Source: a phage | DNA: 35,820 nt | Assembly: GCA_037431425.1 (NCBI GenBank) | Contig: GCA_037431425.1_4129.3 | Strand: one strand, 5' to 3' | Shown: piece after piece, positions 1 to 25,085 of the stretch | Numbering within the stretch: the stretch's first letter is position 1 | Layout: each line of letters starts with the position of its first letter | Translations under genes and position numbers: made by a program | The notes under the pieces: generated by a model | Database searches by the model: none | What the model was told of the DNA's origin: nothing | The model's input: the letters and a program-made list of their open reading frames with translations, nothing else

Positions 1-1313
1 GTAGCATTAGGTGGTAGTACAGTTGGTGTTAGTTGTTGAGTATCACCGACTGAAGTTAATTTAGCACTTGTTGGAGATACTGATACACTTGCAACAGGAA
101 CTGGAATGTTAACAGTTACCACGCAAACTTTAGAAAATCCACCATCAGATGTGGTTGCTGTAATATTTGCAGTACCGTTTGCAACAGCAGTGATTAAACC
201 AGTTGGACTTACCGTTGCGACACCCTCAGCAGAAGTAGTGTATGAAATATCTTTACGACGAGCGTTATCTGGAATAACAGATGCAGTTAGTTGTTGAGTA
301 GCACCTACAGAAGTTAGGGTTGCTGTCAACGGAGTCATATTAATACCAGTTACTGGGATCGTTACATCAATCACTGATTCAGCAGTTTTAGCACCATCAT
401 CAGTTGTAACAGTAATAGTTGTAGTACCGTTATCAACAGAAGTTACTAGACCAGTATTACTAACTTTTGCTACGTCTGGATATGAAGAAACATATGAAAC
501 TGCTTTATTGGATGCAGTTGCAGGAGCAACGGTTGTTTCTAATTGTTTAGTATCACCTAATGTTGAGAATGTATAAGTACTAGGAGTCATAGTGACACCC
601 GATACTGGCGTTTTCACTGTGATCGTAGAAGTGTCAGTTTTAGCACCATCTTCGGTTGTAGCTGTAATCACCACTGTACCGTTAGCAACACCAGTTACTA
701 GACCAGAAGTAGAGTCTACAGTTGCTATATCAGGTGTTGCTGAAGACCACGTGACGTTTTTATTAGTTGCATCATCAGGAGATATTGTGGCAGTTAATTG
801 TTGAGTACTGCCAACGTTAATTGATGCAGTTTTAGGAGAAACAACAACACCACTAACTGGAGTTGTTACAGTAACAGTACATTTTGAAACAAATGAACCA
901 TCAACTGTAGTTGCAATTACATCAGTACTGCCATCTGCAACACCAGTTACCATACCAGTTGGACTTACAGTTGCGAAGCGTGGTATACTGGATGACCAAA
1001 TAACACTTTTATCACTTGCATCATCGGGTGATACGGTAGCTGTTAGTTGATGAGTTTTACCAACACCAAGAGATAGAGTTGAAGGAGAAACAACAACACC
1101 ACTAACTGGAGTTGTTACAGTAAATGCACAAACATCTGTGAAACCACCATCATGAGTAGTAACTGTTACATTTGCATTACCATTAGCACGGGCAATTGCT
1201 AAACCAGTTTGAGCATCAACTTCAACTATTGTTGGAGCAGAGGAACTATAACTTACTGTTGGATCCTGGATTAATTGTAGCTGATAGTTGTTGTGTGCTA
1301 CCAACTTTAAGTG
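1..1313 (-). CDS. Partial ORF encoding at least five tandem bacterial Ig-like (Big_2-type) domains; C-terminal part of a probable virion decoration/fibre-like protein; runs off the window
   Basis: Manual reverse-strand translation in the +1 frame relative to ORF 1246..1716 is open from about 1313 to the window edge and gives repeated ~80-aa units (e.g. ...TPVSGVVVSPSTLSLGVGKTHQLTATVSPDDASDKSVIWSS...). No in-frame ATG near its 5' end. Confidence 0.6.
60..1245. repeat. Tandem ~240-bp DNA repeats (the Ig-like domain coding units)
   Basis: Near-identical segments recur with ~243-bp period, e.g. gaaacaacaacaccactaactggagttgttacagta at 840-875 and 1081-1116; related units at ~330 and ~575. Confidence 0.6.
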
Positions 1314-1716
1314 CTACTACTTTGGGTGAAATAATAACACCATTAACTGGTGTAGTATAATCACGTTTAACCACACGACCATTGTTCAATTTAATAATAC
1401 GACCCATATAAAGAGTAGCATATCCCTTACTAATCCCATCATCTACATAAATCATAAATGAATTGTCTTGAACCATATTAATTGCGTCTACTGGCTTAAC
1501 AGTATTTGGAATGTCGATACCACGGGTATCATACCAACACATGGAAACTTTGTAATATATATCACCATTATCATTGATGAGATCATACACGTTACTGGAA
1601 CGTTGACGGTTAATATATAAAGTTTCGGTTAATACCTTACCATCGATTTTAGCGACAGAAACTTTAATACCACCAATACCAAATGGCAATTTACCTTCAC
1701 TAGATATTGCTTTCAT
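1246..1716 (-). CDS. N-terminal domain (156 aa) of the Ig-like repeat protein; probable late/virion protein
   Basis: ORF with ATG at 1716 (reverse strand), SD-like AAGGAAAG just upstream, stop TAG at 1246-1248; a late-promoter box lies ~38 nt upstream. Confidence 0.6.
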   Translation of the reverse strand: MKAISSEGKLPFGIGGIKVSVAKIDGKVLTETLYINRQRSSNVYDLINDNGDIYYKVSMCWYDTRGIDIPNTVKPVDAINMVQDNSFMIYVDDGISKGYATLYMGRIIKLNNGRVVKRDYTTPVNGVIISPKVVALKVGSTQQLSATINPGSNSKL

Positions 1717-1962: not shown

Positions 1963-1991
1963 TTGACATAATTAATCAATTATTGTACTAT
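1963..1991 (+). promoter_or_regulatory. sigma70-like promoter (-35 TTGACA, 17-bp spacer, -10 TACTAT)
   Basis: TTGACA at 1963-1968 and TACTAT at 1986-1991, ~35 nt upstream of the first plus-strand gene. Confidence 0.4.
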
Positions 1992-2026: not shown

Positions 2027-2632
2027 ATGAAACTATTCTTGAAAGAGATTGTACAAACCGTTGTTTTAATCGCTGCATTAAATTTTCCAGCAGCGGCAGA
2101 AGTTTCAAAAAAAGCATCTGTTCTTCTATTAAATGAACAGGTTGTGTCAATGGATGGTGAACTAAATGATAATACGGTACAAGAAGTAGAGCAGTTGTGG
2201 AAAGAAAAAAGATTTAAAATTTTAACAATTACATCACCTGGGGGTGATTTTGATGCTGGTATTAAAATGGCAAATTTTGTTAGAGACAATGGTATAAATT
2301 TAATTGTTTCTAAATATTGCAATTCGGCATGTACTGTGGTATTCTTTAGTGTATCCCCAGAAAAGCGATATATGACAAATCAATCAGTACTGGGATTGCA
2401 TAATATTTCAATCAAAAGTAACGTTAAAGATATGGATCATACTTTCGTATCTGTTAGACAACTATCATCATTTACTGAAGAAATGGCAACAAAAGTAGGA
2501 TTTTTATTTACACTATATTCAGCTAATGGTATTCCACCTAGCATTCTATATAAAGTTAGTCGTTCACGTGGTGAAGATGTTGTTATCTTAACAAAAACAG
2601 ACCTAATAAATTACGGTTCAGTCAATCCATGA
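2027..2632 (+). CDS. Secreted ClpP/S49-like (crotonase-fold) peptidase homolog
   Basis: N-terminal signal-peptide-like segment; motif ILTITSPGGDFDAG resembling the ClpP INSPGG region, with a downstream His; the position aligning to the ClpP active-site Ser looks substituted (NSACTVV). SD GAGG 7 nt upstream. Confidence 0.45.
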   Translation: MKLFLKEIVQTVVLIAALNFPAAAEVSKKASVLLLNEQVVSMDGELNDNTVQEVEQLWKEKRFKILTITSPGGDFDAGIKMANFVRDNGINLIVSKYCNSACTVVFFSVSPEKRYMTNQSVLGLHNISIKSNVKDMDHTFVSVRQLSSFTEEMATKVGFLFTLYSANGIPPSILYKVSRSRGEDVVILTKTDLINYGSVNP

Positions 2633-2700
2633 AAATAATTATAATAACAGGATGATTATGTTGTTCTTCCTTTGTTATTAACTATATCGGAAATATAACC

Positions 2701-2961
2701 ATGACAAACATCCAGAATTTGACATCTATTATTTTTTATGCTACAGTGGTGATATATGCTATTGTACTTATTTTAACAGTTTTTATATACAAAGATTACA
2801 AAAAAGGCTTTATTAATAGCACAACAATCAAGTTCAATTCTAAATTTAAAGAAATTATATTTTATGTTTTGACAACATCATATTTGTTGTGTATATTGTT
2901 ACTAGGGCCATTGATTTATATTTTATATACAACATTATTTGCAATTGGAGCTATTTTATGA
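2701..2961 (+). CDS. Small hydrophobic membrane protein
   Basis: 86-aa ORF with predicted TM helices; stop overlaps the next start (ATGA). Confidence 0.45.
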   Translation: MTNIQNLTSIIFYATVVIYAIVLILTVFIYKDYKKGFINSTTIKFNSKFKEIIFYVLTTSYLLCILLLGPLIYILYTTLFAIGAIL

Positions 2962-3554
2962 CATGTATTATTGCATACACTGACGGTGTAACTTCATTTA
3001 TTGCAGGGGACAAGATGGGGAGTGATGGTTTTACGAAATCAATCCAAACAGAGCCGAAAGTATTTGAGAAAGAATTCGTAAAGATTAGTGGTGATGACGG
3101 CTTGACTCGTACAAAAGATGTTATGACTTTTGGATTCACTACATCATTTCGTATGGGTCAACTGCTAACTTACAATTTAAATTTACCAGACCAAAATTCA
3201 AATGAGACGTTTCTACAGTATTTAGTACTGAAAGTTATTCCTCTTATTCGTCAAATGTTTAAAGACGAATGGGGTGCACGTGATACAACACAAGATGTTG
3301 GTGGTGGTCAATTTATTATTTTACACAATCATACGATTTATGAAATTCAGGAAGATTTTTCGGTTCTCCAGTCAAAATCAAGAGTTGCATCTGTTGGTAG
3401 TGGTACATATCATGCAATTGCAGCGATGCAAGCATACATTGAACTCGAAAAAGAAACTAACGTACAACTTCATGAACGTATCAAATCTATTTTCAAAATT
3501 GTCAGTGATAATGTGTCGAGTGTAAGTGAAGAGTTTGATGTATTAAAATATTAA
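2958..3554 (+). CDS. HslV/proteasome-beta-like Ntn-hydrolase peptidase
   Basis: Start at internal ATG 2958 gives MTCIIAYTDGVTSFIAGDKMG (compare HslV MTTIVSV..GHVVIAGDGQ, Thr2 nucleophile) and C-terminal VASVGSGTYHAIAAMQAYIE (HslV IAIGSGGPYAQAAARALLE). The track ORF starts earlier at 2889; ATGA overlap with the upstream ORF supports 2958. Confidence 0.65.
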   Translation: MTCIIAYTDGVTSFIAGDKMGSDGFTKSIQTEPKVFEKEFVKISGDDGLTRTKDVMTFGFTTSFRMGQLLTYNLNLPDQNSNETFLQYLVLKVIPLIRQMFKDEWGARDTTQDVGGGQFIILHNHTIYEIQEDFSVLQSKSRVASVGSGTYHAIAAMQAYIELEKETNVQLHERIKSIFKIVSDNVSSVSEEFDVLKY

Positions 3555-3569
3555 AATTATAAGAGAGAA

Positions 3570-3764
3570 ATGATGGCATACACAATTTATGAATGGATTT
3601 TGAGTTTTATTATAGTATTTTTTATGGTTGTAATTTACAATAATGCTAAATGCTTATATAGAGATTTAAAATCCAATGGTTATCATGCAAACAATAATTT
3701 AATGTATGCCTATCATATTGGAATCATTCTATTATTATCAATATATTTAATTGGTTTTATATAA
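3570..3764 (+). CDS. Small membrane protein
   Basis: 64-aa hydrophobic ORF with AGAGAG upstream. Confidence 0.45.
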   Translation: MMAYTIYEWILSFIIVFFMVVIYNNAKCLYRDLKSNGYHANNNLMYAYHIGIILLLSIYLIGFI

Positions 3765-3773
3765 GGATTACGT

Positions 3774-4526
3774 ATGATATCAGAAAAATTCATAAGTAAT
3801 GAGGGAAACAAGAGATTACTTATCATCTCAGGAGCAGGTCTTTCCGTTGAAAGTGGTATGGACCCATTTCGTTTCGATGATGGCCTATGGGATACATTTA
3901 AAATTAATGATGTATGTAATATTGCAAATTTAGATACAAAATATCATATTGTTCATTCGTTTTATAACACGCTGCGTGTTAAACTGGGTCAATGTGAACC
4001 AAATGCAATGCATTATTTTATAAAATCATTAGAGGAACAATATGGTGATTGTTTCCTTCATATGACTTCAAATATGGATGATCTTTACACCCGTATTGGC
4101 GGTAAAGAACTTAAACTTCATGGTAATTTATGTGAAGTGATAGAAAATTATAGTATTAATGGTGATGATTACAACATTGTTAACTGTGGTTATGAGCCAT
4201 ATATCCCAAAACATGATATTTTTGCTAAACCAAATGTAGTGATGATTGGTGAGTATCATCGTTATGTGGATGGTGTACGCCTACCAATATATGAAGAACG
4301 AAATAATGTCTTGAAATCCCTTGATGAAAATGATACAGTTATTGTTATTGGTAGCAGCGATACTGTTCTTGTATGGTCCCGATTGGTAGCATCATTGCCA
4401 TGTTATAGTGTCAATGTTAATATTAGAAAGAATGATAATGATTTTTTGTTTAATGAAAAAATTATCAAGCCAGCAACCAAAGCAATACCACAACTAGAGA
4501 CTATAATTAAGGAACGTATGAAATGA
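3774..4526 (+). CDS. Sir2-family (sirtuin-like) NAD+-dependent deacylase/NADase
   Basis: Sirtuin motifs GAGLS (GAGxS), TSNMD (TQNxD-like) and LHGN (HG); SD AAGGA upstream; only two Cys in the usual zinc-module position. Confidence 0.8.
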   Translation: MISEKFISNEGNKRLLIISGAGLSVESGMDPFRFDDGLWDTFKINDVCNIANLDTKYHIVHSFYNTLRVKLGQCEPNAMHYFIKSLEEQYGDCFLHMTSNMDDLYTRIGGKELKLHGNLCEVIENYSINGDDYNIVNCGYEPYIPKHDIFAKPNVVMIGEYHRYVDGVRLPIYEERNNVLKSLDENDTVIVIGSSDTVLVWSRLVASLPCYSVNVNIRKNDNDFLFNEKIIKPATKAIPQLETIIKERMK

Positions 4527-5074
4527 GTGTTAAAGAAGTTCCCTTTGGTGAATATGGTTCACGTGCAAATTTTGTATTCTGCTATTTCTTTGCAAGAGGA
4601 TGTAATCCCTACGAAAACTATGAGTTGAATGATATACCAGAAGTAAATTTAGTATTACTTCAACTACGATGGGATGGCCTTCTGGGTGGATGTGGTGGTA
4701 CAGTTGAAAGTACTGATATCTCATTAGAAGATGCGTTGCGTCGTGAAATACAAGAAGAAATGAACTACTATATTTTTGTTTCTCACTTAAAACCACTTAA
4801 AACGTTTGAAATTTACCCAGGTGCAAACAGTCATAGTTTCAGTTATGAAGTAACATATGATGAGTTAAAATACATTCGTGATGGGTATACAACTGCCAAA
4901 CATGCAAGTGCCGAAGTTGCTGGTGTAAATTTATGTCATATTTCTCGTTATTCTAAGGGACAAAATCGAGAAGCGGGATATAATAATCTTATGACACAGA
5001 ACTTCATCGGTACAGCAAAACACGAATTAGCGTATCTGGTACAAAAAGAGAACTTACTAATTAGCTATCTATAG
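4523..5074 (+). CDS. Nudix-like hydrolase (NudE-like, putative)
   Basis: GGTVESTDISLEDALRREIQEEMN resembles the Nudix box (REUxEE core), with atypical spacing between the Glu and RE; start overlaps the Sir2 stop (ATGA). Confidence 0.5.
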   Translation: MSVKEVPFGEYGSRANFVFCYFFARGCNPYENYELNDIPEVNLVLLQLRWDGLLGGCGGTVESTDISLEDALRREIQEEMNYYIFVSHLKPLKTFEIYPGANSHSFSYEVTYDELKYIRDGYTTAKHASAEVAGVNLCHISRYSKGQNREAGYNNLMTQNFIGTAKHELAYLVQKENLLISYL

Positions 5075-5084
5075 GAGTTTAAAA

Positions 5085-5405
5085 ATGTCTTACTCTATGT
5101 TTTTGGATGACATTCGTGATGCAAAACAATATTACCCTAATCAAGATATGGTAGTATGTCGTGATTTTAACAGTGCGTGTGAATATGTTGTTAAAAATGG
5201 AATTCCAGCATTTGTATCATTTGACCATGACTTGGGTGATATGAGTGGAGACGAAAAAACTGGATATTCTTTTGCTAAATTTCTTATTGATTATATGTTT
5301 GATAATAATATTAAAGAACCGTTTGAGTACTTTGTGCACAGTAGTAATCCAGTTGGTAAAGTTAACATTGAAACATACTTAAACAATGGATTTAATGCAT
5401 TATGA
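5085..5405 (+). CDS. Hypothetical protein, possibly a CheY/REC-like fold
   Basis: ORF with AGGAG SD; receiver-like spacing of acidic/Asp/Ser/Lys residues (FLDD..., VSFDHDLG, HSSNP, GK); weak. Confidence 0.5.
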   Translation: MSYSMFLDDIRDAKQYYPNQDMVVCRDFNSACEYVVKNGIPAFVSFDHDLGDMSGDEKTGYSFAKFLIDYMFDNNIKEPFEYFVHSSNPVGKVNIETYLNNGFNAL

Positions 5406-5704
5406 TTCAAACACATATTAAAAGTATCATTTGCACTATACTACTAGGTGTAGGAGTTCTATGGTTCAGTAATTATCACGAGAACACTAAGCGTACAAAT
5501 ATTCACTATAATACCGCAGAAGTTGTAAGTTTAGGACAATGTAGTGAGTCCAAATGTTCGTTCATGTACAAAACCAGTAATGGTGAAGTACGTAATGGAC
5601 TATCTAGTGAACCAGTTTCGATTGGTCAACTTGTTTACCAGGAGTGCTGGGAAGAAAAGGTTCGAGGTTCACGATGTTATGTTGAATACGAACCAAAAAT
5701 GTAA
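5402..5704 (+). CDS. Hypothetical membrane-anchored Cys-containing protein
   Basis: ATGA-coupled ORF; N-terminal hydrophobic helix. Confidence 0.5.
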   Translation: MIQTHIKSIICTILLGVGVLWFSNYHENTKRTNIHYNTAEVVSLGQCSESKCSFMYKTSNGEVRNGLSSEPVSIGQLVYQECWEEKVRGSRCYVEYEPKM

Positions 5705-5767
5705 TAATAACATGAGTCAATAATAATAGCCGGGTACAAGGATGTACTCACAATTCAAGGATGTTTT

Positions 5768-7207
5768 ATGAAAAAATATACAATTGACACAAACGTACTA
5801 CTATCTGATCCAAATGCATCTGTTGCTTTTGATGGTGCTGCAATCATTCTACCATTTACAGTACTGGAAGAATTGGATTCGATTAAGAGTCGCAATGTTG
5901 ATGTTTCACGTGATGCTCGTGTTGCGATTCGTAACATTGAAGCAATTATTGCAGAGGCATCACATAATGAGATTAGTTGTACTGGTGTTAATATTGCTGA
6001 TGTTCATACCAATATGAGTCCTGAAAGCAAATTGTTTGTTATTACAAACGAAGAAGCTGAAGCACTAATTCGTACTAAGGCAATTGAAGATAAAGTTCAA
6101 ACACTTCTCAAAAGTTCTGTACCAGATGATAAAATTATCTTAGTCGCTTTAGCAACTGATTCAGTACTGGTTACCCGTGATATCAATATGCGTATCAAGG
6201 CTCTTAGTTATGGAGTTGAAGTACAGGATTATCGTCATGATGTGGTTATCGGTGATAGCGATCTAATGCACGTAGGTCAACATCATCTCGATATCGATTT
6301 CTGGGCAGAATTCAGTGGGATTGAAAATGCTGAAATTAAATCTGAAAAAACAGGTCGCCGCCTGTATCATTATATCCCAACACATCTAATCAAAGATCTT
6401 CTTCCACAAAATCTTTGTATTGGTGACTATCTATATGATAATGCTGATGTGCTCTTTGTTTACGAAGGTCAGTCTGCAATCGAAGAAGATGATGGTAGTC
6501 TAACACCAGAAGATATTTTGGTCTTCCAAGATATTGGTCAATCTGTTGCATTACGTGCTAATGTATGGGATATTAAAGCGAAGAATGTCAAACAAGCACT
6601 AGCTATTAATAGTATTCTCGATCCCGATGTACATCTAACAGTTCTACTAGGTTCTGCTGGGACGGGCAAAACACTAATTACGATTGCTACTGCACTAGAG
6701 TTAGTTCTGGAAAAACGTAAATACGACCGTATTATCTTCTCTAAAACACAAGATTCACAGTTTGAAGATATCGGATTCTTGCCTGGTTCAGAGGCCGAGA
6801 AAGTGATTCCATTTTGTGGTCCAGCGATTGACGCACTAGAGTACCTACATAAAGATGATGCAAATCCACAAGGTAGCATTGAGGAAATCATGAAACGTAA
6901 TGTTATCCAGTTCAAAGCATTGAACTTTATTCGTGGTCGTTCTTTTGCCAATACAATTCTAATTGTGGATGAAGCACAGAACTTAACACCAGCCCAGCTA
7001 AAAACTGTCTTGACAAGAGCCGGAGAAAACTGTAAAGTAATCATACTTGGTAACCTAGCACAGATCGATAACAAGTTTATCAGTCCAGTAAACAGCGGTC
7101 TAACTTATGTAACTGAGAAATTTAAAAATTGGTCTGGTTGTCGTATCATTGAATTGGAAGGTGTTGTTCGTTCACCACTTGCTGAATTTGCTGAAGAAAA
7201 TATGTAA
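5768..7207 (+). CDS. phoH: PIN-domain / PhoH-like ATPase fusion (PhoH2/YlaK-type)
   Basis: N-terminal PIN-like YTIDTNVLL...; Walker A LGSAGTGKT; PhoH-like IVDEAQNLT and GNLAQID; SD AAGGA upstream. Confidence 0.85.
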   Translation: MKKYTIDTNVLLSDPNASVAFDGAAIILPFTVLEELDSIKSRNVDVSRDARVAIRNIEAIIAEASHNEISCTGVNIADVHTNMSPESKLFVITNEEAEALIRTKAIEDKVQTLLKSSVPDDKIILVALATDSVLVTRDINMRIKALSYGVEVQDYRHDVVIGDSDLMHVGQHHLDIDFWAEFSGIENAEIKSEKTGRRLYHYIPTHLIKDLLPQNLCIGDYLYDNADVLFVYEGQSAIEEDDGSLTPEDILVFQDIGQSVALRANVWDIKAKNVKQALAINSILDPDVHLTVLLGSAGTGKTLITIATALELVLEKRKYDRIIFSKTQDSQFEDIGFLPGSEAEKVIPFCGPAIDALEYLHKDDANPQGSIEEIMKRNVIQFKALNFIRGRSFANTILIVDEAQNLTPAQLKTVLTRAGENCKVIILGNLAQIDNKFISPVNSGLTYVTEKFKNWSGCRIIELEGVVRSPLAEFAEENM

Positions 7208-10767: not shown

Positions 10768-11132
10768 ATAGTAAATTGGAGAAATTAATCGAAGAATTAC
10801 GCCAGATGCCGCCGATTGAACAAGTAGGTAATTATAAACGGTATCGTATTATTGCTCGTGCACTTGATAAAAAAGGTAGAGTACTGGCAACTCGCACAAA
10901 TTCTTATACACAGACTCACCCTAAGCAGAAAAACTTTGCAGTTAAAGCTGGAAGAAATGATGCAATATGGTTACATGCTGAAATAAGCTGTTTACTCGCA
11001 GCAAGGGCTGATGTTCACACATTATTAATTGCACGGGTTAGTAAAGATGGAATTCCCGTTTCTGCAAAACCATGTGAAATTTGCTCTTTAGCAATACAAG
11101 AATACGGAGTAGTTGAAGTAATACATACATAG
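10764..11132 (+). CDS. CDA-fold zinc-dependent deaminase-like protein
   Basis: HAE (LHAEISCLL) and PCxxC (KPCEICS) zinc-ligand motifs; ATGA coupling. Confidence 0.55.
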   Translation: MNSKLEKLIEELRQMPPIEQVGNYKRYRIIARALDKKGRVLATRTNSYTQTHPKQKNFAVKAGRNDAIWLHAEISCLLAARADVHTLLIARVSKDGIPVSAKPCEICSLAIQEYGVVEVIHT

Positions 11133-11145
11133 GTAGAATATTTTC

Positions 11146-12222
11146 ATGGAAGAAATAAAAAAAGAATTAAATCAATTTAATGAATACGTATATAATTTGT
11201 ATTTTAATAAAAATATTATTTTTACTTGGATGAAACCTGAAGATATAAAGTATATAAAAACATCATCATCAAGTAAATCTCCATTTTACTTTGAAAAATT
11301 AATACTCAATAAATCATTTTCAAATTATCATTTTGAATTTCTTGGTTTTAATATAAAAAAATCAGATGATTGGATAGGAAAGCTTACAAATATAGTAATT
11401 AAGTTGAATGATATAATATATATACGTAACATAAAATCTTTTTTGGAGATGCCTGTGACTCTCAAGCGTGTCCCATATGTGATTCATAATTCTAATAATA
11501 TTAGTTACTATTTAAACAAATACAATAAAAATTTAAAATATATAAATTGTATGTATGATAAAATCAATGAAAAAACTTATTTAGATTTACAATGTAAAAT
11601 ATGTGGTTATGAATATAAATCATGTTTAAACAATATTAAACATAGAAGTACAGATTGTCCTGGTTGTATGAATAATGTTGTATTATCTGAAGATGATATG
11701 TTATATAGAATAACATTGAAATTATATACACAACCACATATAAAATTATTAAATTTCAACTATAATAACGGTGGTAATAAGAATGCAATAGGTACATATT
11801 ATTGTGAAATACACAATTATACATGGGATTCTATGTATTTTGGGACAATTGCAAAAGATCAAAGTTGTAAACTTTGTATGCAAGGTCAATCTAAAGGTGA
11901 AAAATATATCACTGAAATATTGGATAATTTAAAGGTAAATTATATAAGAGAATATAAATTTGATAAATGTTTTAATCAAAGAAAATTACCTTTTGATTTT
12001 TATATTCCAGATTTCAATTTATGTATAGAATATGATGGAAGACAACACTTTGAATCTGTGGATTTTTATGGTGGAAACGATGCTTTTTTTATAAGAAAAA
12101 AGAATGATGAAATAAAAAATTCATTCTGTGAAAATAATAATATTACATTATTAAGATTTAATGATCTCAATTTTTCTCGTATTGAATCAACATTGAATAG
12201 AATACTAAAAAGTGTTAAATAA
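11146..12222 (+). CDS. Putative free-standing homing-type endonuclease (Cys-pair zinc-finger region + DUF559/Vsr-like nuclease C-terminus)
   Basis: Much more AT-rich than neighbours; several CxxC pairs; C-terminal ...FDFYIPDFNLCIEYDGRQHFE...ITLLRF resembling the DUF559 restriction-endonuclease-like signature. Confidence 0.5.
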   Translation: MEEIKKELNQFNEYVYNLYFNKNIIFTWMKPEDIKYIKTSSSSKSPFYFEKLILNKSFSNYHFEFLGFNIKKSDDWIGKLTNIVIKLNDIIYIRNIKSFLEMPVTLKRVPYVIHNSNNISYYLNKYNKNLKYINCMYDKINEKTYLDLQCKICGYEYKSCLNNIKHRSTDCPGCMNNVVLSEDDMLYRITLKLYTQPHIKLLNFNYNNGGNKNAIGTYYCEIHNYTWDSMYFGTIAKDQSCKLCMQGQSKGEKYITEILDNLKVNYIREYKFDKCFNQRKLPFDFYIPDFNLCIEYDGRQHFESVDFYGGNDAFFIRKKNDEIKNSFCENNNITLLRFNDLNFSRIESTLNRILKSVK

Positions 12223-13898: not shown

Positions 13899-15704
13899 GT
13901 GCAATTGAATAAATTATACACGGACGTAACGAATTTTCTAAACCAGAGTAATACTGATCTTACAAATGAAAACGCAAATAAAGATGCCAAATGTGTAAAT
14001 ACACACAGAGATTTACTTGCTGGTATCTTATCTAAACATTATTCACAAGATGTTATTCCAAAGGATCTAATGCAGTGGCACAATGATGGATATGGTCACA
14101 TTCATGATTTGGACTACTATATTAGTCCATTAACAAACTGTTGTTTGGTTAATTATCCAGATATGCTTAAACATGGGTTTACTATCGGGTGTGCTAAAAT
14201 CGAAGAACCAAAGAGTTTTAGTGTAGCATGTACGGTGCTAACACAGATTGTACAAGCTGTTGCAAGTTCCCAATATGGTGGTCAATCGTTGGCTCACATT
14301 GATGTCGGATTGGAACCTTATGTACAAAAGTCTTGGGAAAAGTTATTAGAAAAACAAAAGAAATATAATCTAAGCGATGATTTTATTGAAGAAGAATTAC
14401 GAAAAGAAGTATATGATGGGTGTCAAACATTACTATATCAGACCAATTCAATGATTAGCACTAATGGACAAGCTGCATTCATTTCTCTTAGTTTAGGACT
14501 TAATACTTCCAAATTTGGAAAATTAATCACTGAACAGTACTTGAAAGTTCACGAGAATGGTTTAGGTAAAGATAAGATTACACCAGTGTTTCCTAAAGTT
14601 ATTTTCTTTCTACAAGATGGTATTAACATGAATGTCAATGATAGTAATTATGATCTTAAACAGTTAGCTATGCGTTGTGCATCAAAAAGAATCTATCCAG
14701 ATTTTGTTTCAGTACCATTAAATCATAAAGTGACGGGAAGTAGTAGCACTGCGGTAACACCGATGGGCTGTCGTTCATTCTTAGGAAAATGGGAAGATTC
14801 AAATGGAAATGAACAATACAACGGTCGCTTCAATTTAGGTGTAGTTTCTATCAATTTACCACTAATTGCTCTTGAAAGTGCCTCAGATGGAGAGTTTTTT
14901 GATAAAATAGACGAGCATATGAATATTGCATATCGTGCTCAGATGAACCGCGTAGAGCGTTTAAAAGGTACAAAAGCGAAACAGAATCCAATTTTGTTTA
15001 TGGAAGGTGCATTAGCACGTTTAAGTGCAGAAGAAACTATTGACAAGCTATTTTACAATGGTTATGCTAGTATTAGTATTGGTTATGTTGGACTTGTTGA
15101 ATGTTCGGAAATCCTCACTGGTTCTATCAGTAAGGAGTTTTGTATGTCAGTACTGAATTATATGAAAGTAAAATGCGATGAGTTCAAAAAAGAAAGTAAT
15201 ATTGCTTTTAGTCTATATGGAACTCCAGCAGAGTCGCTTTGTTATAAATTTGCACGTTGCATTGAAGCAAAATATCCTTCAGTTCTCAAACGAGATTTCA
15301 TTACAAATTCATTCCATCAACCAGTATGGGTTGAAAGTTCCGCTTTTGAAAAGTGGGATTATGAGGAAAACTTTGCGTATCTAAGCAATGGTGGGAATAT
15401 TAGCTATGTTGAAACACCAAACCTGGCTAATAATATACAAGCACTTGAAACATTGATCAATTATGCATATGATAAAATTCCATATTTTGGAATTAATCAG
15501 AAAGTAGATAAGTGTTTTGAATGTAATTTTGAGGGAGAATTTAGTGTAGATAAAAATGGTTTTCATTGCCCTGTATGTAATAACAGAAATGAGCGAACAA
15601 TGTCTGTTATACGTAGGGTATCTGGATATCTTAGTGCACCAAATAGTCGCCCGTTTAATAAAGGTAAACAAGCTGAAGTAATTCAGCGTATACAGCATAT
15701 GTAA
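13899..15704 (+). CDS. nrdD: Anaerobic ribonucleoside-triphosphate reductase (class III RNR)
   Basis: 601 aa; C-terminal glycyl-radical motif RRVSGYLS and zinc-ribbon CFECNF...CPVCNN; overall layout as in T4 NrdD; GTG start with AAGGAG 6 nt upstream; no intron interruption. Confidence 0.9.
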
Positions 15705-16959: not shown

Positions 16960-19659
16960 ATGGCAAATAAAATATATGGTGGTATTGATGTTACACACAA
17001 TGTCACAGTAAAAGGTAAGAGAAGTGCTCAGAGCATCAATGATGACGTATTTGATGAAAACGGTAATCTCACAATAGATGCATATACACAAGATGATATG
17101 TTAGAAATGGTTGGTATGTTACCAATTTCTCGTTATGGTACACAAAACTATCTACCTGCTGGTGTTAATGGTACAACAGTTGGTTCTTCAGAAAATGTGA
17201 ATTCCAGAAATACAAAATTATTTTTAGAAGATGATAACACTTTAGTAATGTTACGTCCAGGTACTAATGGTAGTACTCAAGGTGTTTATTATAGTTATAT
17301 GACCCAAGCAGTAGGTACAACAAATACAAGTCGTATGGTTAATACTACTCGTGCATATAAACCCAATTACTTTGGTGCAGCATACGCAGTTTATTTGTAC
17401 CCAAGTAGTAATGATATTACTTGCGGTTTAGTGAGAATGGAGAATACCGATGGTACATATGTTGATAAAGTTTTTGTGTCAGATAATAATGGTACATTGA
17501 ATGATGCAATGCACACTGGTATTATTCTATCAGATCATACAGCAGTACAACCTTTTGGTGCAATACAATTTGTTATTCGTGCAGAAGATGGTGCATTATA
17601 TTTTTTTAGTTTAGATACACCAAATAATACTCTTAAAATATCCGTCACTAAAGTTACTTTTAGTCCAAGTAATAACCCAGGTGGTGGTACTTATAGTATT
17701 ACTAGAATTACTGGTTGGACTACAAGAACTTTTTATAATGCAATGATAGCTGATGAGAACATTGTTCCTACGATGAAAATAAATTCAACAAATGCCAATG
17801 ATACTCCATACGTTTTAATTCCAAGCGGTATTATTGGGTTTGGTGTTTATATGACAGATCCAGATTTATATGTTGCACAGAAATCAGGTACATCTACATT
17901 CAAATTTAGATTATGTGGTGATATGTGGGTGAGTAATGGTAGATATGACATACGACCACAACATAGTTTTAGTATGACTTTTGATGTTGCAACGAAGCAA
18001 TGTGCACTCGATAATATGACAACGACTGCACCTGTTGCTGTTTATGACAATGGTTCTAGCATGAATGCAACTGGACCTTGCTTGACAACTGACCCATTTT
18101 ATCTTCATGCAGGTGCACGTAATATTTTCAGTAATTATTGCTATGTTCCATCAACAGGGGATGCGTTTTGTTCATTTTCACCAAACCTAGCAGAACCATT
18201 GAATGTATCATATGCAAAATACCCACCAAAATCTTTATTTGATTTGATGGATGTTAGAAGTGTGTCAGCAACTAATTTTATTAATGGTGTAGTATCACCA
18301 AGATTTGGTTCAGCAGTTGGTTCATACCAAGTAGGTGTAGAGTTATTACCAAATAACAGTACTAAACAATATTCAAGACGTTCTGGTGATGGTCGTTTTT
18401 TTCCATCCTATGCTGTTCATAAATCTACACCCAACTTTACATTCAAGTCGTTGAATTATGGTACAGTACCTGGTTATGAACCAACACCTGACCGAAATTT
18501 CATAACCACACCAGAATCACGCATTTTTATAAGTTCAATATCTGGTTCAAACGTCACTACTAATGGTGGTGTTTTGGTTGCTGACATTAGAACATCAACA
18601 CCAATTAGTTTTGATTATAAAGGTAATGTACTGAATAATGGTACAATCAGTATGTCTCAAGATATAATGAATGCTATTAGGAATTCAGAATTTGCTAAAG
18701 TTGCTGGTTCTTGGGATATATCCCCAGCATCAGTAAAAACATTATCAGTTTTCGTTCCACAACAAACTGATATTCCTGTTTTCGCGGTTCTTGCTGCAAC
18801 AACTAATTCCAGAGGACTATATATTCGTATGATTGAATTAGGTGTTAATACAAGAACAGGAGATATTACAACGTGGGCATTTAAACGTTTAGTACATGAA
18901 AGTGTTCAAGCTCTGGATTACAAAACTGATGCCGGATATTATCTTGATAGTGGAAGTATTGGTATTACTATATATGATGCTGGTTCTTTTTACTTCATTG
19001 GTGGTGGTATTCCAGGTTTCTTTCCTACAGTTGGTAATACAGCTTCACCTTTTTTTCGTGCTACTGTAGATAAAGCAAGTAAGCAATTTAATAATTTCCA
19101 TATAGCTGGTTATCGTCCCATCTATGCATTAGACGGTCAACCGTTCGCTTTACCTGGTATTGGATTTGGTATTCTTCAAAGTATAGATCTTCAAAACAAA
19201 ACCATTTTTAGAACATATGGTACTACATTAGAAGATTATAATGCATGGACTGATAAAGGGAATCCATTCATTTGCGTTGTTTCACAAGACGTTGCTCAAG
19301 GTTTTATTATATACTTCACCGAAGAGACACCAGTACTGATATCTGGTAAGCACTATACGTTACCAATATCAAATATTGATTTAACAAAAGTGAAAGCAAA
19401 TCCTGCGAATACTACATTTTATGTGTATATTAAATTAGTGCAGGGTATTGCAAAGTATCATATATCAACAACTGAATTAGCTGAAACTCAGTCAATATTC
19501 TGGATTGGTACAGTGAAAACTAATGATTTACAAATAACCGAAATTAATATCGTTAAACGTTCGCGTTTAGATCTGTTTGGTGCATCCTATGACGCTGCCG
19601 GAAGTTCATTCCCAGTTAGTTCTGGTTTTCCTTCAGGTTCTGGCAATGTGAATTGGTAA
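16960..19659 (+). CDS. Large late protein (899 aa), paralog A; probable virion fibre/adhesin-like protein
   Basis: Late-promoter-driven; N-terminal MLPISRYGTQNYLP and C-terminal module SQDVAQGF...SSGFPSGSGNVNW shared with the other two operon members. Confidence 0.7.
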   Translation: MANKIYGGIDVTHNVTVKGKRSAQSINDDVFDENGNLTIDAYTQDDMLEMVGMLPISRYGTQNYLPAGVNGTTVGSSENVNSRNTKLFLEDDNTLVMLRPGTNGSTQGVYYSYMTQAVGTTNTSRMVNTTRAYKPNYFGAAYAVYLYPSSNDITCGLVRMENTDGTYVDKVFVSDNNGTLNDAMHTGIILSDHTAVQPFGAIQFVIRAEDGALYFFSLDTPNNTLKISVTKVTFSPSNNPGGGTYSITRITGWTTRTFYNAMIADENIVPTMKINSTNANDTPYVLIPSGIIGFGVYMTDPDLYVAQKSGTSTFKFRLCGDMWVSNGRYDIRPQHSFSMTFDVATKQCALDNMTTTAPVAVYDNGSSMNATGPCLTTDPFYLHAGARNIFSNYCYVPSTGDAFCSFSPNLAEPLNVSYAKYPPKSLFDLMDVRSVSATNFINGVVSPRFGSAVGSYQVGVELLPNNSTKQYSRRSGDGRFFPSYAVHKSTPNFTFKSLNYGTVPGYEPTPDRNFITTPESRIFISSISGSNVTTNGGVLVADIRTSTPISFDYKGNVLNNGTISMSQDIMNAIRNSEFAKVAGSWDISPASVKTLSVFVPQQTDIPVFAVLAATTNSRGLYIRMIELGVNTRTGDITTWAFKRLVHESVQALDYKTDAGYYLDSGSIGITIYDAGSFYFIGGGIPGFFPTVGNTASPFFRATVDKASKQFNNFHIAGYRPIYALDGQPFALPGIGFGILQSIDLQNKTIFRTYGTTLEDYNAWTDKGNPFICVVSQDVAQGFIIYFTEETPVLISGKHYTLPISNIDLTKVKANPANTTFYVYIKLVQGIAKYHISTTELAETQSIFWIGTVKTNDLQITEINIVKRSRLDLFGASYDAAGSSFPVSSGFPSGSGNVNW

Positions 19660-20270: not shown

Positions 20271-23012
20271 ATGGCTTCTAGACGAATTATAGGAAACGCA
20301 GATATACTAGGGAATTTAAAAATTAATGGAAAGTATGCATTACGTTCCCTTAATGGTGTTCCTGCTGACTCTGCTGGTAAAATCACTTATCAATATTATG
20401 ACAAAGCGGAAGTAAATCAGATGTTTGATATGCTTCCAGTTTCAAGGGTAGGTGATCAAGATTACCTACCAATGAGTATTAACGGAACTTTTGAAGGTGC
20501 TTCTTCCTTTTCATTTGCAAAAATAATGCAACCTTGTATCATTGAAAATGATGGTACTGGTGTAATTTTACGTGCAGGTACAAATGGAAGTTCTTATGGT
20601 TACTATTATACTTATATTAAAAATATAAGAGATATAGAAACACTAACTCAAGATAATATAATTACAACCAATACGATGTATAGACCGTCTGTGCTACCAA
20701 GTACTGATTACATTTATGAATTTTATGGGTCAAATGCATATGAATTACTATTTTGGGAATCAACTGATAGAACATCATATTACCTTACATTAACAAATGA
20801 AACATTGAATGAATCAGCACACAAGCATTGCAGAATTCCAAAAACAGCAATAACAAATAAACCAATATATGCACACATCGTAAATGATTCAGTTTATATA
20901 TGGTGTATGGATTCAAGTGTATTTAGTAGTGTTCGCGGGTGTGCATTTATTATATACACAGTACCTTTAACTGCATTTAATACTGGTTCAGTTTCTACCG
21001 TAACACAGATTGGTGGTTATTCAGGAAGAACTATAAGAGATGCAACATATACTGCATCTAATAATATTCGCGTTTATGATAGCTATTCTATTTTAGGTTC
21101 AGGTGGTGATGCACTAATAGTATATGATAATGGTGTTTCCAGAATAGATTATTGGGAAAATAACGTATTTAATACCCAAGCAGTTCTTAGCCCAGATGGT
21201 ACAAAAATAAGAGTTGCGATCTATCCAGGATTCCGTGTTTTCACTGAAACAAAAACATCTAGTGTATATGCACTTGGTATTAGCTTTACATATGATATCA
21301 GTACTAAAACAATGACACTTGATGGTTCTGAACGTGGTCCAATCAGAGTATCAGCTAATACATCAACTGGTAGTATAACAGTAAGAAACCCGTTTTCAAT
21401 CAATATGGAAAACTTTACAGGGTTTTATGACGGTGCACTTGGCAACTATGGTTCAATCTGTCAAACTTCTGATGGTTTTGTTTTCACTACCAAAGCAAGA
21501 TGGACATCCACACCAACATATGCAGTACAAACATACAAAGTTTCTGGTACACCTTATGATAGTTGGGTCGCTAAAACACGTACTGCTAGTAATTTAAAAC
21601 GTGTCGAAGTAATGCCAGTTTATGGCTCCCCTGTCGGTGAAAACTTAATAGGTGTTCGTTTCGTAGATAAACGTAAGATACTTGTTGCATGTTCTGGCAC
21701 TGCTGATGGAATTTCTTATGGTTATGATAGTACAGTTTTTACTGAAATAGGTGAGAATCCGACTTATGTTTATAAAAACTTGGAACAAAATACCACAATG
21801 AATGGTTTTGCACCATCAAGTAATAGACACTATTTAAGTACTGATTACAAATATGCAGGTATGATAACATTGGTTGATGCAAATGGAAATGTCAGCACTT
21901 ATGGTTCTTCGTTAATAGAAGACATCGATAAACCAGCGTATGGAAAATTCGACCCAGTTACAATGGACTTCGACAGTAATAGATATGAAATTTCAGGAAC
22001 AACATTATCAAGTATAGGTGATAATGCAATTGCTAAAGCTGGATTGTCTGGAATAACTGATCATAAAACTGTTTTTTATTATGTACCTGATACTACATAT
22101 TCTAAATCGATTGCAGTCACTTCTGCATTAAACGGTACTACCAATGTGTGTTATATTATTTTTTCCGAAATATCATGTAGTGCAGTTGGTACAAGTGGTA
22201 CTATAATTTTACGTGGTATTAATGTTGATACAGCAAGATATACATCAATGACGAATACATACCAAATTTCACCAAATGAAATGGTCAAACGTTGGGCTGG
22301 TATGACGGTTTCTAAGTTTAATGGTTTTAACTACTTAGGCGTGAACATTTTATATGGCATTGATACCCCAGGTTGGACTCGTTATCCTAACATGATTGCT
22401 AAAGTGAAAAATGGTATTATTTCAAGTCAACGATATATGGAAACAACTTATATTTCAAACGCACAATTTGATATAGGTACAATTCCAGGGATTGGGTTTG
22501 GATATTACCAAATGAACAAAAACGATTATCAAACTAAATCAGTTTTTGCTGTATGTGGTACTACTGAAGCAGATATGGATAAACTAATATCTGGTAATGA
22601 AACGATATCACAGTACTTAGTTGTTGCTTCTCAGGACGTGGCACAAGGGTTTCATGTATACTTTTCACAAGAAGTACCAGTTTTCTTGGGTGGAAAGTTT
22701 GCAAAGATACCACCGACTATGATAGACTTATCTACTATAAGTACTACACCAGAGAATTCAACATTCTACATATATGCGGTGATGGATAGAGATACATCCA
22801 CAGCATCGTATCAGATATCACTACATCAATTATCAGAAACTATGACATCAACATACATTGGTAAGATAGTAACTAATAATAATGGTATTGCATCAATCGA
22901 GTCTGAAAAAGTTTCCAGATTCTTGCTATACCGTCCAAGTACCTACAATCGTGGTTCTGCGATCCCAGCAAGTTCTGGTGTTCCGTCAGGAACAGGTACA
23001 CGTTGGAATTAA
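20271..23012 (+). CDS. Large late protein (913 aa), paralog C; probable virion fibre/adhesin-like protein
   Basis: N-terminal MLPVSRVGDQDYLP and C-terminal SQDVAQGFHVYF...SSGVPSGTGTRWN collinear with paralog A. Confidence 0.7.
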   Translation: MASRRIIGNADILGNLKINGKYALRSLNGVPADSAGKITYQYYDKAEVNQMFDMLPVSRVGDQDYLPMSINGTFEGASSFSFAKIMQPCIIENDGTGVILRAGTNGSSYGYYYTYIKNIRDIETLTQDNIITTNTMYRPSVLPSTDYIYEFYGSNAYELLFWESTDRTSYYLTLTNETLNESAHKHCRIPKTAITNKPIYAHIVNDSVYIWCMDSSVFSSVRGCAFIIYTVPLTAFNTGSVSTVTQIGGYSGRTIRDATYTASNNIRVYDSYSILGSGGDALIVYDNGVSRIDYWENNVFNTQAVLSPDGTKIRVAIYPGFRVFTETKTSSVYALGISFTYDISTKTMTLDGSERGPIRVSANTSTGSITVRNPFSINMENFTGFYDGALGNYGSICQTSDGFVFTTKARWTSTPTYAVQTYKVSGTPYDSWVAKTRTASNLKRVEVMPVYGSPVGENLIGVRFVDKRKILVACSGTADGISYGYDSTVFTEIGENPTYVYKNLEQNTTMNGFAPSSNRHYLSTDYKYAGMITLVDANGNVSTYGSSLIEDIDKPAYGKFDPVTMDFDSNRYEISGTTLSSIGDNAIAKAGLSGITDHKTVFYYVPDTTYSKSIAVTSALNGTTNVCYIIFSEISCSAVGTSGTIILRGINVDTARYTSMTNTYQISPNEMVKRWAGMTVSKFNGFNYLGVNILYGIDTPGWTRYPNMIAKVKNGIISSQRYMETTYISNAQFDIGTIPGIGFGYYQMNKNDYQTKSVFAVCGTTEADMDKLISGNETISQYLVVASQDVAQGFHVYFSQEVPVFLGGKFAKIPPTMIDLSTISTTPENSTFYIYAVMDRDTSTASYQISLHQLSETMTSTYIGKIVTNNNGIASIESEKVSRFLLYRPSTYNRGSAIPASSGVPSGTGTRWN

Positions 23013-24683: not shown

Positions 24684-25085
24684 ATGACTACAGTTGATGA
24701 TATTTACAGCACTATACGCAATATGAGCACAGATAGAAAAGTATTTGGTGATAAAGAAAAATCTAAGTGTTATGGTATTGATTCTTTTGATATAATTTCG
24801 TATGAGTACAACACGAATGGAAATAGTTCACTGAATATTGTCTGCCCTCGTGACCCAGAAAATAATTTTATGTATGTTGAAATTAATAATGATGGAATGT
24901 TTTTTACAAAAGTTTTTAAAGGTGGAATTAATTACGAAACGATTGAATGTATGAATGAAGAAACTTTCTTTCAAGAAGATACAATTATCAATTTAGGTTT
25001 TAGTTTTGATGATTATAAAACATTAGAACATGACTTTAATCGTTATTATAACGGTTTCTTAAAGGAGTTAACAATTTATCTATGA
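24684..25085 (+). CDS. Hypothetical protein
   Basis: ORF in the operon; ATGA coupling with the next gene. Confidence 0.5.
   Translation: MTTVDDIYSTIRNMSTDRKVFGDKEKSKCYGIDSFDIISYEYNTNGNSSLNIVCPRDPENNFMYVEINNDGMFFTKVFKGGINYETIECMNEETFFQEDTIINLGFSFDDYKTLEHDFNRYYNGFLKELTIYL

Follow-up and report, generated by a model that had tools for sequence, protein, structure and literature searches.

A ClpP-fold protein with a predicted signal peptide and a proteasome-fold N-terminal nucleophile hydrolase encoded close together in an Asteriusvirus jumbo coliphage

A stretch of 35,820 nucleotides of phage DNA (GenBank assembly GCA_037431425.1, contig GCA_037431425.1_4129.3; this whole stretch is hereafter called the window) was analyzed for a locus at positions 2,027 to 3,764, in which two genes coding for protease-fold proteins, one ClpP-like and one HslV-like, alternate with two genes coding for small membrane proteins. 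Between positions 1800 and 5800, the window is 99.0% identical to Escherichia phage ph0011 and 86-93% identical to other Asteriusvirus jumbo coliphages (about 350 kb; UE-S1, 121Q and PBECO4). On this similarity, the window is assigned to an Asteriusvirus jumbo coliphage syntenic with 121Q. The features of the locus are the following:

1963 to 1991, plus strand: candidate sigma-70-type promoter (TTGACA, 17 nt, TACTAT) found by consensus scan, 36 nt 5' of the ClpP-like gene.
2027 to 2632, plus strand: predicted ClpP-fold serine peptidase of 201 residues, homologue of 121Q gp473, with a GAGG Shine-Dalgarno sequence.
2027 to 2098, plus strand: predicted Sec-type signal peptide, residues 1-24, with a signal peptidase I site between AAA and EV.
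2701 to 2961, plus strand: membrane protein of 86 residues with two predicted transmembrane segments.
2958 to 3554, plus strand: predicted proteasome/HslV-fold N-terminal nucleophile (Ntn) hydrolase of 198 residues, homologue of 121Q gp475.
3570 to 3764, plus strand: membrane protein of 64 residues with two predicted transmembrane segments, directly 3' of the HslV-like gene.

The four plus-strand open reading frames (ORFs) listed in a preliminary description of this DNA are all present at these coordinates. That description had also moved the start of the HslV-like gene to 2958. The corrected start is preceded by a GGAG Shine-Dalgarno sequence 7 nt upstream and lies in an ATGA overlap with the preceding stop codon; it agrees with the GenBank coding sequences of ph0011 and 121Q, and 119 of 120 homologues begin with MT(C/A). 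In the 2014 annotation of 121Q, the counterparts are gp473 'protease (ClpP-like)', gp474 (hypothetical) and gp475 'protease (ClpYQ-like)', the last being named at present 'peptidase HslV family' in RefSeq. Since both genes are labelled as proteases in 121Q, the essence of the finding is already in the public annotation.

The ClpP fold proposed for the first protein is borne out by profile and structure comparisons. The Pfam CLP_protease model barely passes its cut-off (23.6 bits versus 20.2, E = 5.5e-5), and PHROG 26024 'protease' matches with E = 3e-83. An AlphaFold2 model computed from a 40-sequence alignment has a predicted local distance difference test score (pLDDT) of 92.3, and its 50 best Foldseek matches in the PDB are all ClpP, with a template modelling score (TM-score) of about 0.65-0.7 (0.61-0.67 when normalised to the query) and a root mean square deviation of about 2.8 Å (down to 2.6 Å) over about 175 columns. 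The NCBIfam ClpP subfamily models reach at most 25 bits with cut-offs of at least 200; an NCBIfam scan of the family matches no named family, and a direct sequence search of the PDB with the protein gave nothing useful. By exhaustive HMMER search (E ≤ 1e-3), the relatives form 541 clusters at 50% identity; a word-indexed search found only 11 relatives. A cluster look-up returned no informative names, and nothing relevant was found in the literature on COG3904 or on periplasmic ClpP-like proteins.

In the preliminary description, the residue aligning with the ClpP active-site serine appeared to be substituted. This claim has to be withdrawn. The family signature is S70-x-G-G, C98-x-S100-x-C102 and H125 (codons of Cys98 at 2318-2320, Ser100 at 2324-2326, Cys102 at 2330-2332 and His125 at 2399-2401). 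Among the best 150 of the 541 cluster representatives, on which all conservation counts for this family were made, S70 is found in 149 and G72 and G73 in all 150, each cysteine of the C98/C102 pair in 149, Ser100 in 146 and His125 in 145. When the HMMER family profile was aligned with four solved ClpPs, CnSaC fell on the (A/V)ASMG/ASAG nucleophile motif and lglHn on MIHQ, which places Ser100 and His125 on the catalytic residues. The spacing of 25 residues between them is exactly that between Ser97 and His122 of ClpP and, in the AlphaFold2 model, Ser100 lies where strand 91-99 passes into helix 101-108. A hhalign alignment with E. coli ClpP sets Val104 opposite the catalytic serine, a shift of four residues that reproduces the 'substituted' serine; it is overruled by the HMMER alignments to the PDB ClpPs, by gap parsimony and by the secondary structure of the model. 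As far as alignments can tell, the protein has no ClpP triad but a conserved pair of serine and histidine, the serine being flanked by two invariant cysteines.

The signal peptide announced for the same protein stands as well. Its N-terminus, with the predicted cleavage between MKLFLKEIVQTVVLIAALNFPAAA and EV, shows a Sec layout: a short charged n-region, a hydrophobic core of 11 residues and A-x-A at positions -3/-1, the FPAxA motif being invariant among close homologues. A hydrophobic segment is located at residues 8-26 on the Kyte-Doolittle scale, the AlphaFold2 model shows a helix at residues 2-18 followed by a low-confidence linker, and an N-terminal hydrophobic segment is present in 119 of the 150 representatives.

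The second protease-fold protein had been presented as a clear HslV homologue. The fold and the active site of this claim are upheld, membership of the HslV equivalogs is not. The NCBIfam equivalog models TIGR03692 and PRK05456 give 16.9 and 17.2 bits, far from their cut-offs of 157.75 and 137 and over the last 60 residues only; Pfam gave no significant match, and phmmer against the PDB sequences found none at E ≤ 10. PHROG 1040 'peptidase HslV family' matches with E = 4.4e-21, 324 homologues were found, and the family profile aligns by hhalign with E. coli HslV at 96.8% probability. The AlphaFold2 model (pLDDT 94.0) comprises helices H1-H4 and a terminal strand, and has no H5. Foldseek retrieved 691 PDB matches at E ≤ 1e-3, the 50 best being HslV, BPH, 20S subunits or Anbu, with HslV in first position (E = 2e-9, 16-18% identity, TM-score 0.6-0.7), followed by BPH, 20S beta and Anbu; in BFVD, 35 viral structure clusters share the fold. 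Protease-fold matches were found, in this way, for both proteins.

In the hhalign register, T2, D18 and K34 correspond to Thr1, Asp17 and Lys33 of HslV, and G59 falls on the oxyanion-hole Gly45 (codons of Thr2 at 2961-2963, Asp18 at 3009-3011, Lys34 at 3057-3059 and Gly59 at 3132-3134). An alignment of 65 diverse members shows no variation at M1, T2, D18, K34, G59, S63, F64, Q68, G117, G147, G149 and V189, in agreement with the proposal that Thr2, directly after Met1, is the conserved nucleophile. C3 and the remaining positions of TTSFRMGQLL reach at least 90% conservation in the same alignment; the motif TTSFRMGQ covers residues 61-68, and the stretch G147-S-G149 is also conserved. Three homologues have Ala instead of Cys3, which is therefore not the nucleophile. 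Judged from these alignments and from the model, this is an Ntn hydrolase of the proteasome fold with a complete predicted active site, but no orthologue of HslV; it is a member of a distinct phage-borne family of proteasome homologues (PHROG 1040).

This family occurs in 198 of 50,697 phage records, and the remark that phage-encoded proteasome-like peptidases are uncommon is true in a relative sense only, such proteins having been catalogued in 2021 (PMC8665760). Fuchs, Alva and Lupas listed there 22 new proteasome homologues, several of them phage-borne (PPH, AAH and CPH). Carriers of the present family include many T5-like Epseptimavirus (EPS7 AGC_0103) and Aeromonas, Vibrio, Yersinia and Moorella phages. 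Two neighbourhoods recur among the IMG/VR loci (L057, L066-L073, L091, L095, L098, L027-L049 and L102). In large phages (about 10 loci), the gene lies between an HD (RelA/SpoT-like) hydrolase gene and the gene of an NAD-dependent DNA ligase, with Thg1-like, PheRS-like and metallophosphoesterase genes around it. In small phages (about 15-20 loci), it stands beside the genes for the large terminase, portal and prohead protease, in many cases precisely in the gap between terminase and portal.

Two other arrangements of the family were observed. In Aeromonas phage 2L372D (gp210/gp211; L014 3501-4954), two proteasome-fold genes stand side by side and encode a 183-residue member of the MTC type, then a 294-residue protein starting with VTTIAY and ending in a long acidic extension. 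The VTTIAY N-terminus is the more HslV-like, and the pair may represent a two-subunit arrangement. On a contig of a Myxococcota metagenome-assembled genome (L003 4070-9426), six genes follow one another at short distances on the same strand, and the fifth of them encodes a bacterial member of the family; this array begins with a ParA-like ATPase gene and its other four genes have no Pfam domain. The array may be a prophage remnant or a cellular operon.

As the preliminary description stated, no HslU-like partner was found in the window. A tblastn search of the window with E. coli HslU gave no match, and an AAA+ domain is absent from ten further ORFs of at least 185 residues and from the PIN-PhoH protein, nrdD (13899-15704) and two ORFs of 194 residues being unscanned. 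In a sample of 80 IMG/VR loci carrying the HslV-like gene, with flanks of up to 10 kb, an HslU-like gene was found in none and a ClpX-like gene in one. HslU-like genes are present in other jumbo phages, for example in the Erwinia Ea35-70 group; at most four Escherichia phage records have an HslU match, versus at least 31 that match the Asteriusvirus locus. An orphan 'HslV without HslU' was already remarked in another jumbo phage (PMC7823757), and Fuchs and coworkers reported neither a co-occurring AAA+ partner nor an informative gene context for their novel proteasome homologues, phage-borne ones included (PMC8665760). A PhoH-type ATPase was considered as the missing partner and rejected as a family-wide link, as its gene is present in only 3 of the 80 unbiased loci; PhoH is found near this gene in the window, L005, L006, L014, Turkey5 and SE_PL.

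Both small membrane ORFs are real genes, each with two predicted transmembrane segments and under purifying selection relative to 121Q: the ratio of nonsynonymous to synonymous substitution rates (dN/dS) is 0.30 for the 86-residue ORF and 0.17 for the 64-residue ORF, values comparable with the 0.14 of the HslV-like gene. The 86-residue protein is 81% identical in 121Q and 37% in Turkey5, where its gene also stands beside the ClpP-like gene; from its positions, it appears to travel with the latter. The 64-residue protein has an 89%-identical counterpart in 121Q, encoded by an unannotated ORF (L001 7351-7539, between gp475 and gp476), and a 63-residue ORF with two transmembrane segments occupies the same position in Turkey5. 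The dN/dS of 0.17 indicates that the 121Q ORF is a genuine gene, overlooked in the RefSeq annotation. A small membrane gene as a family-wide partner of the HslV-like gene was rejected, a 3' transmembrane ORF being present in 4 of 49 dereplicated loci versus a background of 6%. The small membrane genes are real and lineage-specific.

The interleaved arrangement implied a four-gene module, which is not maintained in related phages. The ClpP-like gene has the syntenic position, after a dCMP deaminase gene and a minus-strand Big_2 structural gene, in RaK2, XaC1, EJP2 and two metagenomic jumbo contigs, where it is directly followed by NMNAT-Nudix and NAMPT genes; neither an HslV-like gene nor a small transmembrane ORF was found at this slot. 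In Turkey5, an inserted minus-strand structural gene splits the ClpP-like gene and the 86-residue ORF from the HslV-like gene, the 63-residue ORF, Sir2 and Nudix. In SE_PL, the HslV-like gene lies 3' of NMNAT/NAMPT and no ClpP-like gene is present within the 7.6 kb inspected. Moreover, the ClpP-like gene is missing from 79 of the 80 IMG/VR loci, the two genes occurring together only in 121Q itself. An obligate gene pair had also been considered from a metagenomic T4-like locus (L005), in which PhoH, a ClpP-fold gene and the HslV-like gene stand in a row. This candidate was dismissed: the ClpP-fold protein of L005 is cytoplasmic and has no BLASTP similarity to that of the window, and the pairing is absent from 79 of the 80 IMG/VR loci. 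By gene content, the ClpP-like and HslV-like genes are inherited independently and do not constitute a functional pair, the former being a conserved feature of Rak2-like jumbo phages. In a PADLOC scan, neither protein matched a defence system.

The candidate promoter at 1963-1991 is located at the point of divergence from the minus-strand structural gene. As promoter-like sites in this AT-rich region are not enriched (35 found versus 31 expected from shuffles), it is a candidate only and early expression is not established. Downstream of the locus, the following genes are found:

3774 to 4526: Sir2, downstream of the 64-residue ORF.
4523 to 5074: Nudt16-like Nudix hydrolase, downstream of Sir2.
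5085 to 5405: cREC receiver domain gene.
5402 to 5704: membrane protein gene.
5768 to 7207: PIN-PhoH gene.

This island (3774-7207) has a flavour of NAD metabolism and RNA repair, and an RlaP nucleotidyltransferase gene is found farther on (25082-26314). NMNAT-Nudix, NAMPT, Acb1 and Sir2 occupy the corresponding slot of related jumbo phages, and the region looks like a variable, NAD-centred one for counter-defence or metabolism.

Upstream, the minus-strand gene at 1-1716 encodes a virion structural protein with Big_2 repeats. Relative to ph0011, in which it is a single coding sequence of 890 residues, the window is without 11 bases (ATTTGCATAAT) at about position 1265. This indel frameshifts the gene and splits it into a 156-residue N-terminal ORF (1716..1246) and an out-of-frame array of Ig repeats running off the left end; natural variation, pseudogene formation or an error of assembly could each account for it. 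Elsewhere in the window, two large ORFs (16960-19659, 899 residues; 20271-23012, 913 residues), separated by an ORF of 196 residues, have no Pfam match at E ≤ 0.01 and are homologues of the hypothetical 121Q proteins gp499 and gp501. A G+C trough (23.6% versus about 32-37% elsewhere in the window) at 11001-12000 overlaps an ORF of 358 residues (11146-12222), which has no Pfam match.

We consider it probable that the locus encodes two independent accessory peptidases, a Sec-exported ClpP-fold enzyme with a Ser-His pair and a cytoplasmic proteasome homologue acting through Thr1. Their genes would be unrelated and chance neighbours in the non-structural, auxiliary part of the Asteriusvirus genome. 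The ClpP-fold peptidase would be directed to the host periplasm by its predicted cleavable Sec signal. Neither ATP nor Clp ATPases are found in the periplasm, so that the exported enzyme would have to be ATP-independent, in the manner of SppA and NfeD. Ser100 and His125 would form a dyad at the ClpP nucleophile elbow and, from their conserved positions, Cys98 and Cys102 probably form a disulfide in this oxidising compartment.

The likeness to ClpP (MEROPS S14) concerns the fold, including the handle helix, the SxGG motif, the serine at the strand-helix elbow and the histidine 25 residues later. The phage protein differs by its signal peptide, ClpP being cytoplasmic, by the cysteine pair that flanks the serine, by an Asp171 equivalent that is not conserved and by a score of 25 bits versus ClpP subfamily cut-offs of at least 228; once exported, it would be out of reach of any Clp ATPase. 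SppA and NfeD (MEROPS S49) offer the example of a ClpP/crotonase fold working outside the cytoplasm without ATP. They use a Ser-Lys dyad and are membrane-anchored, whereas the phage family keeps the serine with His125 instead of a lysine and looks soluble after the predicted cleavage of its signal peptide. Matches to this class are weak: Pfam NfeD1b_N gives 17.4 bits versus a cut-off of 40, the PDB match is to 1510-N, and SppA_dom is matched by one of 40 family members.

The HslV-like protein would remain in the cytoplasm, where the host methionine aminopeptidase would strip Met1 and leave Thr2 as the N-terminal nucleophile. A threonine at position 2 lets this aminopeptidase remove the methionine, as in E. 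coli HslV. With Thr directly after Met1, the nucleophile would be exposed in this way and no propeptide cleavage would be needed. Asp18, Lys34 and Gly59 would provide the remainder of a proteasome-type active site. The near-invariance of TTSFRMGQ in phages with diverse hosts suggests a single conserved substrate and not bulk degradation, and the protein would most likely be a self-assembling, ATPase-independent threonine peptidase or amidase acting on this substrate. From the conserved residues and the models, both proteins are predicted to be active.

The phage protein shares with HslV the alpha-beta-beta-alpha Ntn fold, the Met-Thr N-terminus without propeptide, the Thr1/Asp17/Lys33/Gly45 register and the GSG motif. 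It differs by an identity of only 16-18%, by a near-invariant Cys in place of HslV Thr2, by the family's own TTSFRMGQ motif on helix 1, by a 15-residue hairpin extension after Lys34 in the Asteriusvirus members and by the lack of an HslU gene nearby. Among solved structures, BPH gives the best TM-scores (0.66-0.71) and is also without partner unfoldase (PMC8665760), but the identity is 14-16% and BPH is bacterial. BPH itself is a tetradecamer with a long acidic pore loop; the phage protein is known here from a single-chain model. Like the group I homologues of the 2021 catalogue (PPH, AAH and CPH; PMC8665760), the protein is phage-borne, compact, and without propeptide, H5 or AAA+ partner. Its 198 residues (175-200 in the family) and the presence of H2 (85-105) show that it is not PPH as described, which has about 140 residues and is without H2.

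Several points weigh against two active, exported and cytoplasmic peptidases. When the catalytic triad of the ClpP-fold protein was checked, as the preliminary description had suggested, the serine and the histidine were found conserved, but not the aspartate: at D184, which the C-terminal part of the hhalign alignment equates with ClpP Asp171, no more than 19 of the 150 representatives have an aspartate, and the position varies even among close homologues. The mechanism therefore differs from that of ClpP and activity is not guaranteed. The N-terminal segment could serve as a membrane anchor instead of a cleaved signal peptide. By analogy with HslV, which is a poor peptidase alone, the orphan homologue might be weakly active or need a host factor.

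Among the rival explanations, some concern the nature of the proteasome-fold protein. It may be a specific Ntn amidase, transpeptidase or ligase comparable to the monomeric connectase, with one conserved target. The near-invariance of TTSFRMGQ at the start of helix 1 in phages of very different hosts speaks for such an enzyme: the motif lies just past the oxyanion-hole glycine and, by homology to the proteasome, should line the substrate site. Two unrelated conserved contexts (NAD-dependent DNA ligase; terminase/portal) and a weak Pfam match to Connectase MJ0548_N (E = 0.015) point in the same direction, and functional diversity, connectase included, was stressed by Fuchs et al. (PMC8665760). 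However, this Pfam match is below threshold and limited to the C-terminus, the model has the compact H1-H4 layout of HslV and BPH without the two-helix insertion of connectase between S3 and S4, and the nearest structures are ring-forming peptidases; we regard this explanation as rather unlikely. The protein could instead dock on the host HslU, or on another unfoldase, and either form a hybrid ATP-dependent protease that would break down proteins of the host or of its defences, or titrate HslU away from the host HslV. Most cultured carriers infect Enterobacteria, Vibrio or Aeromonas, which possess HslUV. HslV gives the best matches among solved structures with the active site in register with the E. 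coli enzyme, and HslV alone is a weak peptidase (PMC6429459). Of the two residues of the HslU-tail pocket of E. coli HslV (PMC6429459), Phe54 aligns with Phe64, invariant in the family, but Phe57 aligns with the near-invariant Gly67. The identity to HslV is low, the TM-score is about 0.6, the equivalog cut-offs are missed by about 120 bits or more, and the novel proteasome homologues have no AAA+ co-occurrence (PMC8665760), which makes docking on HslU clearly unlikely. A more far-reaching reading would have proteolysis on both sides of the inner membrane, the exported ClpP-fold class on one side and the proteasome homologue borrowing a host unfoldase such as HslU on the other. We give it little credence. 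If it were true, the exported class of 541 clusters would be a large and so far undescribed one of ATP-independent serine peptidases, in which a CxSxC disulfide clamps the nucleophile; the ClpP-fold enzyme would be secreted by jumbo phages in order to remodel or disarm the envelope, for instance through removal of receptors (superinfection exclusion) or destruction of envelope-based defences, while the cytoplasmic proteasome homologue and a host unfoldase would degrade chosen host proteins.

The ClpP-fold protein could also be a dead pseudo-protease, or a second prohead or scaffold protease. A dead enzyme would be in line with the hhalign placement of Val104 and with the variable triad aspartate, but the HMMER alignments with four solved ClpPs, which need fewer gaps, set Ser100 and His125 on the catalytic residues, Ser100 occupies the strand-helix elbow of the model, and both residues are kept in at least 145 of 150 representatives. 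As for a prohead role, some GenBank records of homologues are named 'head maturation protease', and the NCBIfam model Clp_rel_HeadMat (NF045542) matches weakly, with 21.9 bits versus a cut-off of 120. Here the predicted signal peptide cannot be reconciled with action within the prohead, which is cytoplasmic, and for head maturation 121Q encodes another ClpP-like protease, gp464. Both variants are considered very unlikely. Hardly more can be said for an envelope-spanning module in which the small membrane proteins would tether or regulate the two peptidases. It would account for four contiguous genes on the same strand, tightly spaced, with an ATGA overlap between the 86-residue ORF and the HslV-like gene, for the conservation of this arrangement in 121Q-type phages and for the purifying selection on the small ORFs. 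Against it stand RaK2, XaC1, EJP2 and the two metagenomic contigs, where NMNAT/NAMPT follow the ClpP-like gene; Turkey5, where a minus-strand structural gene separates the two halves; SE_PL, where the HslV-like gene stands apart; and the IMG/VR loci, one of 80 having both genes (121Q) and a 3' transmembrane ORF showing no enrichment over the background. On synteny, this module is largely refuted and appears most improbable. Two independent peptidases are, for these reasons, the reading that we retain.

The analysis confirms and corrects existing annotation and does not amount to a discovery, both proteins belonging to phage families that are already catalogued and uncharacterised. Any specific biological role in infection would be assigned to either gene with low confidence. 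The ClpP-fold protein represents a well-conserved and apparently unstudied family defined by a signal peptide, SxGG, CxSxC and a histidine (541 clusters). Judged from its conserved residues, it looks like a Ser-His peptidase active in the periplasm, and it is fixed in the Rak2-like jumbo phages. The proteasome homologue belongs to a family with an unusually rigid motif beside its active site and two conserved genomic niches, and 121Q, ph0011 and the T5-like EPS7 are tractable E. coli phages in which a proteasome relative devoid of unfoldase may be studied during infection.

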